Shown piece after piece: positions 633-10,958 of a stretch of DNA of 64,000 nt; within the stretch, counting starts at the first letter, position 1, and the number at the start of each line of letters is the position of its first letter. The position numbers were made by a program, and so were the translations under genes. The stretch covers positions 14,550 through 78,549 of the forward strand of contig LSSI01000025.1 in NCBI GenBank assembly GCA_001595945.1, given 5' to 3'. The notes under the pieces are model-generated. The model did not search any database, was not told where the DNA came from, and saw only the letters and a list, made by a program, of their open reading frames with translations. The stretch comes from Thermoplasmatales archaeon SM1-50. GTDB taxonomy: Archaea > Thermoplasmatota > E2 > DHVEG-1.

Positions 633-1541
633 GTGAAACTTATATATCTTTGGCAAATTGTAAAATTGGCCCGAATGCCTATTGTTCTGGCAGTGATACC
701 AATTTTCCTTATCGGTGTCCTGTTCGCACTTAGTTCTGGGACGTCCTTTTCTCTTGTCAATTTCCTCTGGGGTTTTAGCATCTTATTTATCATTGAGATA
801 GCAGCGTCATTTGCAAATGATCATTTTGATTATGAAGCAGATAAACACAACAGACAATTTGGTTTCTCTGGGGGTAGTGGAGTATTATTAGAGTATCCGG
901 AACTCCTCCCATTTGCAAAATGGGCATCAGTCACAATGTTTATTCTCTCCCTCCTCTTAACAAGCCTGTTTATCATTTTCGCATCATTGCCTATTTGGGT
1001 CATCGCATATATCGGCGTTGCCGTGTTTTTTTGCTGGTTTTATTCAGCACCACCACTTCGTCTCGTGTATCGGGGTTTTGGTGAAATCCCTCATTTACTA
1101 GCAGGAATCATGTTCCCTGGGTGGGGGTATCTTATCCTGACAGGGACTCTAACATCTGATTTGATCATTTTCGTGATTCCCTTCGGATTCCTTGGTCTGA
1201 CGGTGATACTGAATTTTGAGATACCTGATATGGAGGCAGATATCCATGGAGGAAAACGAAATCTCATCGTAATAAAAGGGCGGTATTTTTCTTTTATCAC
1301 AATTTTTTTACTTTATCTCATTACTTTTTTCTATTTTTTTATCCTAGCAGTTATTGGATGGTTTAATGATATTATCAATCTTTGGGTAATCACCATTCTT
1401 GCATTTCTCCCCTTATCTATCTCTTTTATCTCTATTATAAAAAAATCTATTCAACAAGATGTCGCAACGAAATATGCTATACGAAATGCAATATCTGGTT
1501 TTCTTTCATCGTTTCTTATTATGGTATCCCTTTTTATTTAA
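633..1541 (+). CDS. UbiA-family membrane prenyltransferase (lycopene-elongase-like or DGGGP-synthase-like)
   Basis: Multi-TM protein with the UbiA Asp-rich motif NDHFDYEADKHN (NDxxDxxxD). It sits immediately upstream of the carotenoid genes, so a role in carotenoid prenylation (bacterioruberin-type) is possible but unproven. Confidence 0.7.
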   Translation: MKLIYLWQIVKLARMPIVLAVIPIFLIGVLFALSSGTSFSLVNFLWGFSILFIIEIAASFANDHFDYEADKHNRQFGFSGGSGVLLEYPELLPFAKWASVTMFILSLLLTSLFIIFASLPIWVIAYIGVAVFFCWFYSAPPLRLVYRGFGEIPHLLAGIMFPGWGYLILTGTLTSDLIIFVIPFGFLGLTVILNFEIPDMEADIHGGKRNLIVIKGRYFSFITIFLLYLITFFYFFILAVIGWFNDIINLWVITILAFLPLSISFISIIKKSIQQDVATKYAIRNAISGFLSSFLIMVSLFI

Positions 1542-1656
1542 CTGAAAAATTTGAATTATTGATTGTGTAACATATTCGTAGGGAAGATATATAAATACTT
1601 TTTGTATAATATATTTAAACCACCTCTTATTTTTTAAATGAAAGGGGAGAAAAATC

Positions 1657-2475
1657 ATGAAAAAAAGATATACAATATTCTTTGCAATAATGCTGGTGTT
1701 ATCAAGCTACGTCATTGTGGGGGCTACGATCTCATACCAATTAAATGATACTACTATTGTAATAAAAAATGATAATCAACCATGGTCTACACTCCAATCA
1801 GAAGATGACATTACCATTTCCTTTTCAAAAGCACCACTGTTCTTGGGAGTGAATATTGAAATACAAAACAGCGGAAATGAGACATATCAAGACGTGAAAT
1901 GGAGTTTTCGGGCTAAACCACAGATTTCCGGAACTGGACTTATTTACAAAAACCAAATACGATCTGGAGTGATTGATCAACTCGGTTCAAATGAACGAGT
2001 GTCGATTCCATTACGACCTTTGAACAAACAAACTCCAAGCCCGTTTGGACTTGGTATGTTTTATATGAATGCATCCATCACCACGTCAGATGCCTTCTAT
2101 CGTTCTTCACAGATCTGTTGGCTGGTGTTCCTTTTTATAATTAATCTGAAACCAACCTATATGGATATACCACCTGCTGAGGCCTACAGCTTGTATGAAA
2201 ATGGAACATTTGATCTCATCATCGATGTGGTTGGCCTTAATATCTACAACCTAGGGCATCTTCCTGGTGCGGTGAATTATATCTGGGCAGATGGAACCTT
2301 GAATAAGACGATTCCCACTCTAGATAAAAACCTGACCTATCTTGTCTACTGTCACACTGATCCGCCCTCCACTGCAAGTGCTCAGGCGTTGGTGAATGCT
2401 GGTTTCCCCTATGTCTATCGATTAGAAGGGAACTATCGAGCATGGGCAGACGCGGGGTATCCTGTAGAAACCTAA
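1657..2475 (+). CDS. Secreted or membrane-anchored protein with a C-terminal rhodanese-like domain
   Basis: N-terminal signal peptide or TM segment (MKKRYTIFFAIMLVLSSYVIVGA). The C-terminal ~100 aa resemble a single-domain rhodanese: LGHLPGAVNYIW ... LVYCHTDPPSTASAQALVNAGFPYVYRLEGNYRAWADAGYPV, with a Cys in the CX5(S/T) position. Confidence 0.55.
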   Translation: MKKRYTIFFAIMLVLSSYVIVGATISYQLNDTTIVIKNDNQPWSTLQSEDDITISFSKAPLFLGVNIEIQNSGNETYQDVKWSFRAKPQISGTGLIYKNQIRSGVIDQLGSNERVSIPLRPLNKQTPSPFGLGMFYMNASITTSDAFYRSSQICWLVFLFIINLKPTYMDIPPAEAYSLYENGTFDLIIDVVGLNIYNLGHLPGAVNYIWADGTLNKTIPTLDKNLTYLVYCHTDPPSTASAQALVNAGFPYVYRLEGNYRAWADAGYPVET

Positions 2476-2568
2476 ACGTGTTTTTCCAATTCCTTTCTCT
2501 TTTTTTACAATGAAACAAATAAAATCACAGAATCTTCTTAAATCACCGTCATATACAAGTAGTAAGGT

Positions 2569-8907: not shown

Positions 8908-9018
8908 AATCCTATATAAATATTATTTGTTACACATTTTTTGGTAACAACACGGAAACGAAAAACAAATATAGTCAACATTATTTCTTTGTTTTAAGTT
9001 CTTAGAGGAAATTAAAAG

Positions 9019-9936
9019 ATGTCTGAAATGAAAATTATGTGCCCCAAATGCCACCATCAATTCACCGTCAAAGGTCAACCAAATGAAACGATGCACGTGA
9101 CCTGCCCTTCTTGTAAAACCTTTGGAACATTCACCGTTCCTGAAAGCACCTGCGATACAAATAAAGTGGAGTGTTTTACGGATATCGGGGACACCCGTTT
9201 TAAAAAATTACGAATATTTAACGCGATAATGGGCGTTATACATATGATCCAAGGATTTCTCATGCTGTTATTAAGCAATGCTTTTACTCTTCCATTAACC
9301 TATACGCATCCAGAATATAACGCCACTACTAATACGATTTCACCGGTATCTGAAACCTTTTTTAACGTGCAGATTGGTCCTCTTGTAGCTTTGTTTCTTT
9401 TCATGTCAGCTATTGCTCATCTGCTCATTGCAACCATTCTTTATCAATGGTATGTACGCAATCTGAAAAACCATATCAACCCAGCTCGATGGTATGAATA
9501 CTCGTTTAGTGCGTCGTTGATGATCTTTATCATCGCAATGCTTGTAACAATCTATGATATCGGAACTTTGCTTGGCTTATTTACCCTCACTGCGGTTATG
9601 AACCTCATGGGCTTGATGATGGAATTGCATAATCAGACGACAACAAAAACCAATTGGACATCCTATACTATCGGATGTATCGCTGGTTTTATCCCCTGGG
9701 TCGTTATATTCATTCCTCTTATCACCGCAGGATCTGTTCCAGATTTTGTTATAGCGATATTTATCACTATCGCGGTGTTTTTCAATCTCTTTGCCATCAA
9801 CATGTTTCTCCAGTATAAGAAAATCGGAAAATGGAAGGACTATCTGTATGGCGAACGCATGTATGTGGTTCTAAGCCTTATCGCAAAATCCGCTCTTGCC
9901 TGGCAGGTATTTGCAGGCACGCTTCGACCAATGTAA
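9019..9936 (+). CDS. Heliorhodopsin with an N-terminal double CxxC zinc-ribbon domain
   Basis: Residues ~60-305 align throughout with heliorhodopsin 48C12 and TaHeR as recalled from memory: FNAIMGVIHMIQGFLMLLLSNAFTLPLT, FMSAIAHLL, ARWYEYSFSASLMIFIIA, IGCIAGFIPWVV, and the retinal-Lys helix YLYGERMYVVLSLIAKSALAWQVFAGTL. The first ~55 aa form a CPKC...CPSC zinc ribbon (MCPKCHHQFTVKGQPNETMHVTCPSCKTFGTFTVPESTC). Confidence 0.85.
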   Translation: MSEMKIMCPKCHHQFTVKGQPNETMHVTCPSCKTFGTFTVPESTCDTNKVECFTDIGDTRFKKLRIFNAIMGVIHMIQGFLMLLLSNAFTLPLTYTHPEYNATTNTISPVSETFFNVQIGPLVALFLFMSAIAHLLIATILYQWYVRNLKNHINPARWYEYSFSASLMIFIIAMLVTIYDIGTLLGLFTLTAVMNLMGLMMELHNQTTTKTNWTSYTIGCIAGFIPWVVIFIPLITAGSVPDFVIAIFITIAVFFNLFAINMFLQYKKIGKWKDYLYGERMYVVLSLIAKSALAWQVFAGTLRPM

Positions 9937-10028
9937 ACAATTTTCTTTTTTTTTAAAAAAATAAATATAGTAAATGCAAGGTTTTCCAGAGGGTCTTGAA
10001 TAGTTTTATAAAGAAAAAAAACTGATGG

Positions 10029-10958
10029 TTATGGGGAAAGATTACAGATCTCAGAACCATTTTCCAAGCAGATCTGAATCGTACATTCAATAATATTGTA
10101 TTTCTGTGATAAATAATCATTTATTTTTTGGATTACTTCTTCTTGTTTTGACGTAATTTTTGCTTGGTTGATTTGAACATGCGCGGAGAATACTAACATG
10201 TCAGGTGTAATCGACCAGAGATGCACGTTGTGTAATTCTCGTATTTCTTGAAAATTTTTTTTAAGATCATCAGAGATCATATCAATGTTAAGCCCTTTTG
10301 GGGATGTTTCAAGAAGTATTCGTGCCGAATCTTTTAAAACGCCCCATGCCCAAAGCAAGATAATTATAGAAATACCTATACTAACAAAAGGATCGATAAA
10401 AGTCCAGTTCGTATACATAATAACAACTGCAGCAATGACAATTCCAACTGATGAAATAGCATCAGCAAACATATGATAAAAGATACTTTTGATATTCAAA
10501 TTTTCTTTTTGTGAACCCCTTAGAATCATAATGCTTATGAGGTTGACTAAAAAACCAATAAACGCAATAAGAAGCATCTCTAAACCAAGGATTTCAACGG
10601 GATACAGCAGTCGTAGAATCGCCTCATAGATGATAATTCCAACAATCACAAGAAGGAACAGTCCATTGATAAATGCGGCGAGTACTTCTGCACGATATAA
10701 TCCAAATGTTCGATGATGACACGGTGGTTTTCTTGCGATGATAATTGCAACAAGGCCGATAAGTAATGCAAACACATGGGTGAACATATGTCCTGCATCG
10801 CTGAGCAATGCTATACTATTCGTTAGATATCCCCCGATAAGCTCTAGAATCAATGCGATACTAGTGATCGAAAGTGAAAAAATCAATTTCTTTTGTTCAT
10901 GATGTCGATACTCAAAAAGATGTTCAGAAAACGGTTTTTTTATTTGATTTTGTATCAT
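10029..10958 (-). CDS. Cation diffusion facilitator (CDF) family metal efflux transporter (CzcD/ZitB-like)
   Basis: Six TM helices plus a C-terminal cytoplasmic domain. CDF signature around LLSDAGHMFTHVFALLIGLVA and a His/Asp metal site in TM5 (FYHMFADAISSVG). Confidence 0.8.
   Translation of the reverse strand: MIQNQIKKPFSEHLFEYRHHEQKKLIFSLSITSIALILELIGGYLTNSIALLSDAGHMFTHVFALLIGLVAIIIARKPPCHHRTFGLYRAEVLAAFINGLFLLVIVGIIIYEAILRLLYPVEILGLEMLLIAFIGFLVNLISIMILRGSQKENLNIKSIFYHMFADAISSVGIVIAAVVIMYTNWTFIDPFVSIGISIIILLWAWGVLKDSARILLETSPKGLNIDMISDDLKKNFQEIRELHNVHLWSITPDMLVFSAHVQINQAKITSKQEEVIQKINDYLSQKYNIIECTIQICLENGSEICNLSP

Follow-up and report, generated by a model that had tools for sequence, protein, structure and literature searches.

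A zinc-ribbon heliorhodopsin beside coupled carotenoid and ultraviolet-damage genes in a Thermoplasmatota archaeon

Gene content and layout of the locus

We analyzed a 64-kb stretch of DNA from Thermoplasmatales archaeon SM1-50 (contig LSSI01000025.1; hereafter the window, within which all coordinates are given unless another locus is named) in which a heliorhodopsin (HeR) gene lies close to genes for carotenoid synthesis and for the handling of ultraviolet (UV) damage. The open reading frames (ORFs) of the window were identified by profile searches against Pfam and NCBIfam. On the forward strand, the genes crtI, crtB, rudS, uvdE and pnpox (3389-8099) form one translationally coupled unit in which pigment genes are joined with UV-damage genes. 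The crtI and crtB frames overlap by 14 nucleotides (nt), 5 nt separate crtB from rudS, and the frames overlap by 4 nt at both the rudS/uvdE junction (ATGA) and the uvdE/pnpox junction. The ubiA gene, a rhodanese gene and crtY lie upstream of this unit in the same direction. An earlier note, made from the DNA sequence alone, had named the main genes of the region up to 10958 and had described the DUF523-DUF1722, UvdE and PNPOx-like genes as coupled. All the genes that it named passed the profile searches, and the coupling was confirmed and found to reach further, back to crtI-crtB. The inventory was otherwise incomplete, since the note missed a secreted protein (unk219, 8248-8907), a CDF-family gene (10029-10958) and the zinc ribbon of the HeR.

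CrtI (3389-4870, forward strand) matched the NCBIfam model NF058655 'CrtID' over its full length (residues 6-483 on profile positions 1-478 of 478) with 709.9 bits, above the cut-off of 640, and matched TIGR02734 with 512 bits. The description of NF058655 is bifunctional phytoene desaturase/3,4-desaturase; we assigned the gene to the haloarchaeal bifunctional CrtI/CrtD type, with a predicted 3,4-desaturase activity. Bifunctional CrtI/CrtD activity was demonstrated for C0507/D1086 of Haloarcula japonica in the bacterioruberin pathway (PMC11946383), and the connection between the model and these enzymes is one that we infer here. Since CrtI matches the bifunctional model, beta-carotene is not the sole possible product. 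The next gene (4857-5750, forward) encodes a protein that matched PF00494 (SQS_PSY) with 168.6 bits and has two Asp-rich motifs, DNYVD and DEDLD, in its translation. The NCBIfam CrtB models gave 95-102 bits (cut-offs 480-500) and HpnD gave 110 bits, also below cut-off; we called the gene a CrtB-like phytoene synthase because of its overlap with crtI. The cyclase gene (2569-3306, forward) encodes a fused two-domain lycopene cyclase of the CrtYc/d type, which matched PF18916 in two stretches (78.4 bits) and TIGR03462 (79.9 bits). Its likely true start is the ATG at 2587, which is where the gene caller placed it (3569 in locus L001, whose coordinates are those of the window plus 982). The lycopene-cyclase domain also forms C50 epsilon and gamma cyclases, so that the ring type and the substrate are not readable from the sequence; CrtZ-like genes in relatives favour beta rings. 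The complete route from geranylgeranyl diphosphate (GGPP) to beta-carotene that the earlier note proposed is plausible but remains a prediction: the desaturase is of the CrtI/CrtD type, in relatives a UbiA belongs to the crt operon, and CrtZ- and CruF-like genes are added there.

The ubiA gene (633-1541, forward) encodes a UbiA-family prenyltransferase (PF01040, 70.5 bits) with the UbiA fold and the Asp-rich motifs NDHFDYEAD and DMEAD. Against NCBIfam it gave weak MenA-like matches, at 54.7 bits with a cut-off of 277. Attempts to name the enzyme more closely were rejected: NCBIfam at a lax threshold returned the weak MenA-like matches and was uninformative, a PDB sequence search returned chlorophyll synthase at E = 1e-3 and was equally uninformative, and tblastn against plasmids with inspection of the annotation led to haloarchaeal 'prenyltransferase' genes without carotenoid context. 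Between ubiA and crtY lies a gene (1657-2475, forward) for an exported protein with an N-terminal hydrophobic signal or anchor and a C-terminal rhodanese domain (PF00581, 47.6 bits, residues 173-265). Divergent from ubiA, on the reverse strand, is the 3' part of a gene of the glucose/sorbosone dehydrogenase (GSDH) family (1..405, PF07995; the gene spans 1-1387 in L001).

RudS (5756-6736, forward) consists of a 2-thiour_desulf/TudS domain (PF04463, 116.8 bits, residues 9-149) followed by a DUF1722 domain (PF08349, 131.8 bits, residues 191-307). The residues C14, C45, C109, E47, R56, S106, S108 and R21-Y22-N23 are present with the spacings of RudS_KT, in which the set is C17/C49/C114 ([4Fe-4S]), E51, R60, S111/S113 and R24-Y25-N26 at the tRNA contact (PMC11417400). 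RudS strips 4-thiouridine (s4U) from tRNA, shortens the growth delay after UVA, and is found in operons with photolyase and carotenoid genes (PMC11417400). On these residues and domains, the DUF523-DUF1722 protein is RudS, a predicted tRNA 4-thiouridine desulfidase. UvdE (6733-7626, forward) matched PF03851 with 220.8 bits and, at equivalog level, TIGR00629 with 203.8 bits (cut-off 124.45); the latter match covers residues 4-287 of the TIM-barrel, and the full-length 297-residue form occurs in relatives with 99-100% coverage. The last gene of the unit (7623-8099, forward) encodes a PNPOx-like split-barrel protein (PF01243, PNPOx_N, 36.2 bits), for which the sole PDB match, general stress protein 26 at E = 0.009, was uninformative. 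The PNPOx family is already among the listed HeR neighbours (Chazan et al., preprint 10.1101/2021.02.16.431466).

The HeR gene (9019-9936, forward) matched PF18761 with 322.9 bits (residues 64-302 on profile positions 1-242 of 242, cut-off 26.7) and NF038020 with 345.4 bits (cut-off 100). The first 63 residues (nt 9019-9207) form a zinc ribbon, and the rhodopsin domain extends over residues 64-305. The ribbon is made up of CPKC (8-11), 17 intervening residues and CPSC (29-32). All 12 homologues compared, of 71-87% identity, have C8, C11, C29, C32 and K290; for Pfam Zn_ribbon_4 the score of 20.5 bits stays below the threshold of 30.3. We classified the protein by its sequence as a Znf-HeR, the ntv1 variant of Bulzu et al. 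2021. Residues 55-305 align with TaHeR (6IS6) at E = 1e-124 and approximately 78% identity by eye, and in this alignment the Schiff-base K290 (SLIAKSALAWQ, transmembrane helix (TM) 7), the counterion E160 (RWYEYS, TM3) and H75 and H134 (TM1 and TM2) correspond to residues of TaHeR. Judged from this alignment of the core, the protein would have the inverted topology, bind retinal and undergo a slow photocycle. The fenestration residues Y216, C220, G223, F255, N256 and A259 are present, and a 2025 preprint ties these residues to carotenoid binding by HeR through docking and modelling. The ribbon also agrees with the definition of the "CPxCG-related zinc finger" class, to which Brz of Halobacterium belongs (PMC2253796). 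The gene for Brz, a small protein, immediately precedes bop, and both bop and crtB1 are under its regulation. Split Brz-like zinc-finger ORFs beside HeRs that lack the ribbon were also looked for; they were not found systematically, with one doubtful case in locus L041.

On the reverse strand and divergent from the HeR gene lies unk219 (8248-8907), which encodes a secreted 219-residue protein without a Pfam or NCBIfam match. Its 553 homologues are annotated 'hypothetical' at most, and the named source records are all Thermoplasmatota. In the alignment an invariant AHVPY[LFI]E comes after the signal peptide, and an invariant ELH stands at the C-terminus; the mature N-terminus would be His. The structure is predicted to be a beta-sandwich (pLDDT, a score of model confidence, 87.7) nearest to collagen-binding/PPC domains. 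We considered unk219 as a HeR-specific partner or as a retinal-forming oxygenase, the His having suggested a histidine brace, and rejected both ideas. Divergent homologues adjoin MsrA, MsrB, CrtB or Pyr_excise without a HeR, and because of this we regard unk219 as stress-associated. A second secreted family of approximately 243 residues, without a Pfam match and also with a His exposed after the predicted signal-peptide cut (…TLAHPPQD…), recurs within the island beside GSDH and UbiA genes in relatives (L018 12622-13353, L027, L032, L054 and L078 7935-8666).

The divergent intergenic region between unk219 and the HeR gene (8908..9018) contains two TATA-like boxes, so that each gene has a TATA-like promoter, and a GGAGG-type ribosome-binding site 5' of HeR. 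In an alignment of 14 orthologous regions, we found the conserved blocks CTATATAAATA and AAAnCAnATATAG. A 7-bp inverted repeat, TTGTTAC-N10-GTAACAA, upstream of HeR was tried as an operator and discarded, since it is not conserved in orthologues. The intergenic region between GSDH and ubiA (430-632) is also divergent and is unusually strongly conserved across L001, L004, L007 and L048. It has two TATA-like boxes, CATATAAAG and ACATTTAAATACC, with a conserved block GATTGTGGTT…AAATAAATAAAAAA between them. This block could be a candidate site for a regulator; it has no equivalent 5' of crtI or HeR.

Convergent with HeR, on the reverse strand, is a gene for a CDF-family cation (Zn/Co/Cd-type) efflux transporter (10029-10958; PF01545, 145.1 bits, and PF16916). 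Its orthologues (74-84% identity) adjoin HeR in L004, L007, L025, L034, L039, L048 and L055. TaHeR reportedly binds zinc, and given this a zinc-handling link between the exporter and the zinc-ribbon HeR is conceivable; plain synteny is possible as well. The 450-nt gap between the CDF gene and a C25 peptidase gene holds a stub ORF of 64 codons (11008-11202, reverse). In a tblastn search the stub gave a weak match to the N-terminus of a histidine kinase of L004 (40% identity over 42 residues, E = 0.012), and it is possibly the deletion remnant of a PAS-histidine kinase gene. The kinase, with PAS, HisKA and HATPase_c domains, directly follows the CDF gene in L004, L025 and L034 and lies further downstream in L039 and L055.

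Recurrence of the neighbourhood in related archaea

We scanned one genome per species and obtained 69 loci with HeR relatives. For 57 of them, from Thermoplasmatota-type archaeal metagenome-assembled genomes, the ORFs were called and clustered de novo, independently of annotation. The sources name the close HeR homologues Thermoplasmatota or Thermoplasmatales archaeon. We found that the genes of the island are the commonest HeR neighbours in this lineage. The family of unk219 leads with 21 of the 57 loci, mostly directly adjoining HeR and in three orientations, followed by UbiA and CrtB (15 each), RudS (14), CrtI and the PNPOx-like family (12 each), CDF (11), a SOUL haem-binding-like family (10), CrtY (9), UvdE and class II cyclobutane pyrimidine dimer (CPD) photolyase (8 each), GSDH (7, adjoining UbiA in L078), PAS-histidine kinase (6) and a CrtZ-like hydroxylase (5). 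Naive binomial P values for the counts of unk219, UbiA, CrtB, RudS, CrtI, the PNPOx-like family and UvdE ranged from 1e-7 to 1e-26, with approximately 1% expected per family; they overstate the significance because related genomes are not independent.

Synteny in relatives had been set beforehand as a test in the earlier note, and the genes turned out not to be scattered; their linkage recurs through rearrangements. We distinguished at least five gene orders, represented by the window type, L018, L027, L032, the L047 type and L078. The order of the window is found in L003, L004, L007, L048 and L055. Loci L018, L027 and L032, with HeRs that are 72-76% identical, each have an order of their own. 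In L045, L047, L049, L052 and L054 the HeRs lack the zinc ribbon (63-65% identical) and the order is RudS-photolyase-UbiA-HeR followed by CrtI-CrtB, with CrtY in L047 only. L078 has crtZ-crtY-crtI-crtB-ubiA with unk219 and HeR alongside. The presence of the same families in at least five gene orders argues against simple inheritance. Fourteen Znf-HeR loci were well flanked, with at least 5 kb on both sides; crt genes occur in 7 of these, UV genes in 6 and unk219 in 8, and all six loci with UV genes also carry crt genes.

With UbiA homologues as the starting point, we obtained three neighbourhoods, L078, L079 and L080. In both of the latter, of which L080 belongs to Thermoplasmatales archaeon SG8-52-3, we found genes for rhodanese, fasciclin, CrtB, CrtZ, PNPOx-like, SOUL and UbiA proteins. 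Locus L079 has in addition a second UbiA paralogue, RudS and photolyase between crtZ and the SOUL gene, and L080 has only a remnant of RudS, 23% of the protein. The layout common to both is rhodanese-fasciclin-crtB-crtZ, then pnpox/CREG-like, SOUL and ubiA. The rhodanese gene recurs in the island of L004, L055, L017, L079 and L080. A CrtZ-like FA_hydroxylase gene stands beside crt genes in L013, L018, L027, L032, L047, L078, L079 and L080, and a CruF-like PF04240 gene, found in no other relative, lies 5 kb off in L079.

The UbiA of the window has 569 homologues, and the few named ones are all from Thermoplasmatota or Thermoplasmatales. In L007, L048, L078 and L079 its gene shares an operon with crtB, crtZ and crtY, standing within the operon or at its end, and it is a probable member of the carotenoid operon. 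Whether its role is to prenylate a carotenoid is, from this operon linkage, an evenly balanced question. Together with the CruF-like gene of the one relative, UbiA may resemble the haloarchaeal Lye-CruF pair. We also observed that the UbiA proteins fall into two paralogue groups with approximately 33% mutual identity, both tied to the island (L079 2425-3366 and 7001-7918). Proteins of the window type are mostly encoded in or beside crt operons; those of the second type are encoded directly 5' of HeRs without the zinc ribbon, as in L045, L047, L049, L052 and L054, or between crtZ and rudS.

In L048 (7862-9199) and L055 (7861-9198) the slot between pnpox and unk219 is taken by a class II CPD photolyase gene, and one is also present in L027 (7523-8878). 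In L045, L047, L052 and L054 it follows RudS, upstream of UbiA-HeR, and the copy in L047 matched phr2 with 638 bits. In relatives the photolyase is found 29-1050 nt upstream of HeR. The corresponding slot of the window, between pnpox and unk219, measures 148 nt and holds no photolyase remnant. A tblastn search of the window with the photolyase and CrtZ of a relative gave no match, and tblastn for remnants of photolyase, CrtZ, SOUL, C39-like and radical-SAM genes in the window gave none; only the weak kinase stub was found.

In several relatives a DUF3335/peptidase-C39-like gene begins 9-61 nt after HeR (L003, L006, L008, L011, L039, L048 and L055), and a radical-SAM gene of 429 codons comes next in L006, L008, L011, L048 and L055. 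Neither gene is in the window, where the CDF gene abuts HeR. Compared with its close relatives, which have the photolyase, C39-like, radical-SAM and kinase genes, the window is a reduced version of the island. The rest of the window consists, by Pfam scan, of ordinary archaeal housekeeping genes, including MtrA/MtrH-like methyltransferases, archaeosine TGT, a ribosomal-protein cluster, HisRS, NadA, diphthamide synthase, a RadA-like gene and eIF2-alpha; Rfam and tRNA scans of the window gave zero matches. Separate from the island, MtrA-like, MtrH-like, MetE-like (Meth_synt_2) and pterin-binding DUF4346 genes form a tight co-directional cluster (14106-16480 and the next ORF), which is kept in L004, L039, L048 and L055 and is probably a corrinoid/pterin methyl-transfer module.

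The island as a probable module and the place of the heliorhodopsin

We read the identities of the genes, their coupling in one operon and the recurrence of their linkage directly from the sequence. We consider it probable, though well short of certain, that this Thermoplasmatota locus is a modular light/UV-stress island with which HeR is frequently associated. By homology, CrtB, CrtI and CrtY would convert GGPP to lycopene and on to ringed carotenoids, which would quench photosensitised damage in the single membrane, and UbiA probably modifies the carotenoid or makes another prenylated protectant. RudS would remove UVA-sensitive 4-thiouridine from tRNA and so prevent s4U8-C13 crosslinks and the arrest of translation. 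UvdE would nick DNA beside cyclobutane dimers and 6-4 photoproducts, a light-independent repair to which the class II photolyase would be added, or for which it would be substituted at the same spot, in relatives. The Znf-HeR would act as a slow-cycling green-light sensor whose cytoplasmic zinc ribbon passes a signal to a partner, and its retinal precursor, or a carotenoid antenna, may come from the products of the crt genes next to it.

Several observations weigh against this interpretation. RudS presupposes an s4U synthase, ThiI; a search confined to the 64-kb window did not find it, and the only ThiI-like match there, a weak one, is a QueC. Among the island ORFs scanned with Pfam, none has a transcription-factor domain. 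Nor do the genes share an upstream motif beyond chance: in a k-mer test, five upstream regions scored no higher than shuffled controls, and alignments of orthologous upstream regions gave only boxes resembling the TATA element and the transcription factor B recognition element. The common promoter motif that the earlier note had proposed to look for in front of 633, 2569, 5756 and 9019 thus fell away, and a promoter at 5756 is excluded because only 5 nt lie between the crtB stop and the rudS start. Light induction is something that we only infer, as are signalling by HeR and a supply of its chromophore from the crt genes. Finally, in 7 of the 14 well-flanked Znf-HeR loci neither crt nor UV genes lie within 10 kb, and no HeR was found within 7 kb of the island in L079 and L080. 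Since there are islands without HeR and Znf-HeR loci without the island, the island does not require HeR and the presence of HeR does not entail the island, which is a module in its own right with HeR as a frequent but optional associate. The unit of photoprotection, photorepair and photoreception that had been proposed for this region agrees with the coupled operon, the recurrent linkage and the literature, but HeR is not an obligatory part of it.

The same facts bear on the idea of the Znf-HeR as photoreceptor and master switch of the island, with its ribbon signalling to DNA, RNA or a partner protein and turning on crt-rudS-uvdE as an archaeal counterpart of the bacterial LitR/CarH light regulon. 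The island content (crt, photolyase/UvdE, RudS) is like that of LitR regulons without a MerR/B12 regulator in the Pfam matches, the cysteines of the ribbon are invariant, and the ribbon fits the CPxCG-related class of Brz, the regulator of bop and crtB1 (PMC2253796). Signalling through the Znf was proposed by Bulzu et al. (PMC8612252), and with the neighbouring kinase apparently deleted HeR is left as the sole photoreceptor candidate in the island. But half of the well-flanked Znf-HeR loci are without the island, the island also occurs without a nearby HeR, and HeRs of the L047 group that lack the ribbon sit in the same kind of island. There is no conserved operator-like motif, the 7-bp inverted repeat being absent from orthologues; the zinc-ribbon match stays short of the Pfam threshold, at 20.5 against 30.3; and a membrane-tethered ribbon of 50 residues is not known to bind DNA. 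We therefore consider such control unlikely. The narrower proposal that the Znf-HeR is a one-component membrane photoreceptor-regulator, a Brz-type finger fused to an opsin through which light controls transcription or translation of the adjacent carotenoid/RudS/UvdE operon, is more doubtful still. If true, it would be the archaeal replacement of B12-dependent LitR/CarH and the first defined signalling output of a HeR.

We also considered whether the crt genes chiefly serve HeR, with the UV genes as bystanders. Beta-carotene would then be the retinal precursor, cut by an enzyme yet to be named, and hydroxylated carotenoids, made by the CrtZ of relatives, would be an antenna docked at the HeR fenestration, much as in the crtEIBY-blh-opsin clusters of proteorhodopsin and xanthorhodopsin organisms. 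The genes for the fused cyclase, CrtI and CrtB are 3-6 kb away from HeR, a CrtZ-like FA_hydroxylase stands beside crt genes in 8 relatives, and the fenestration residues listed above are kept. We looked for the cleavage step among most window ORFs of at least 150 residues, all but some in the ribosomal-protein cluster and some overlapping or antisense ones. In these ORFs there was no Pfam match to Blh/BCD (PF15461), to a carotenoid-cleavage dioxygenase (PF03055, RPE65) or to photolyase, so that no known enzyme for the carotene-to-retinal step is among them, and in relatives none of the neighbouring proteins that were scanned or carried annotation was seen to be a Blh/BCD or RPE65 protein. The earlier statement that the window has no blh holds for the scanned ORFs, but the lack of a retinal source is not special to this locus and belongs to a general puzzle: blh is scarce near HeRs and in HeR-only genomes, and because it is generally lacking there, HeR-only genomes point to an unknown retinal route (preprint 10.1101/2021.02.16.431466), which counts in favour of a supply from the crt genes. 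On the other side, crtB is translationally coupled to rudS and uvdE and not to HeR, and the crt/UV island also occurs without HeR. The antenna claim comes from docking and modelling in a preprint, not from spectroscopy of this clade, and both the type of CrtI and the link with UbiA are also compatible with a protective, non-retinal pigment like bacterioruberin. A cluster devoted to the chromophore is thus an improbable reading, on a par with control by HeR. Far less probable is that the genes are neighbours merely by descent in one clade, with no functional link. The exact order of the window is confined to the closest relatives (L003, L004, L007, L048 and L055, HeR identity 83-90%), and the CDF, methyltransferase, MtrA and MtrH neighbours are common to that clade only. 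But at least four other orders and orientations of the same families surround HeRs that are 63-76% identical, the families also recur around UbiA homologues of approximately 50% identity, the overlaps of start and stop codons span the boundary between pigment and repair genes, and RudS has clustered independently with photolyase and crt genes in bacteria (PMC11417400).

Relation to known systems

The outline of this arrangement was published between 2021 and 2024 (PMC8612252; preprint 10.1101/2021.02.16.431466; PMC11417400), and the locus is a further, somewhat reduced member. In Bulzu et al. 2021, lycopene cyclase, phytoene desaturase, SQS_PSY, UvdE, photolyase and an occasional histidine kinase are neighbours of Znf-HeR (PMC8612252). 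Those Znf-HeRs share with ours the phylum, the N-terminal CxxC-17x-CxxC ribbon fused to HeR and the reported neighbours. The window differs in having no photolyase and apparently only a stub of the kinase. Their set comprised six sequences, whereas the present survey covers 57 species-level loci and finds the HeR link to be facultative. Their text has no DUF1722 or Brz, and the passages searched mention neither UbiA nor the 219-residue secreted family (PMC8612252). Compared with these papers, the operon-level fusion of crt with rudS-uvdE, the island without HeR, the unk219 and UbiA families as persistent members and the Brz parallel appear to be new; all are incremental.

The bacterial LitR/CarH regulons (PMC11417400) likewise combine carotenoid synthesis, pyrimidine-dimer repair and RudS, and all catalytic residues of RudS are kept in the window. 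The differences are the archaeal host, UvdE in place of the phrB photolyase, and HeR rather than a B12 protein as the linked photoreceptor; no MerR or B12-binding (LitR) domain was found in the island ORFs by Pfam. RudS activity has been demonstrated only for bacterial and phage proteins (PMC11417400). With the haloarchaeal bop regulon and bacterioruberin branch, the locus shares a CrtI matching the CrtI/CrtD model, a fused c/d-type cyclase and a crt-linked UbiA, and with brz-bop a CPxC zinc finger physically tied to an opsin gene. Here the opsin is a HeR instead of a type-1 pump and the finger is fused instead of separate. The window has no Brp/Blh, Bat or CruF, the CruF-like gene being found in relative L079 only, and its UbiA gave only weak MenA-like matches. 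Cross-talk from an opsin to a UbiA protein has a precedent in the inhibition of the lycopene elongase Lye by bacterio-opsin (Dummer 2011, as summarised in PMC6212597).

The crtEIBY-blh clusters of proteorhodopsins and xanthorhodopsins also place an opsin gene within a few kb of crtB, crtI and crtY. In the window blh is lacking and the crt genes are joined with repair genes, not with the opsin; to our knowledge, HeR is not a proton pump. HeRs have been described as binding and modulating proteins encoded next to them, as for TfHeR and photolyase (PMC9769723), AbHeR and glutamine synthetase (PMC9529153) and OcHeR and an ABC transporter (PMC11109279). As in those cases, the HeR of the window stands beside UV-repair and transporter genes, but the genes closest to it encode a secreted beta-sandwich protein and a CDF exporter. 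We know of no HeR partnership reported for UvdE.

Heliorhodopsins are abundant, and both their role in most organisms and the origin of retinal in organisms that have only HeR are unsettled. The locus offers a compact case, in which a zinc-finger HeR stands beside an operon that fuses pigment synthesis with the handling of UV damage. Co-location alone is no proof of control by HeR because the island also occurs without a nearby HeR, and current views are not overturned by the locus. Its most persistent unexplained members are two lineage-restricted families, the secreted AHVPY protein and the carotenoid-linked UbiA.

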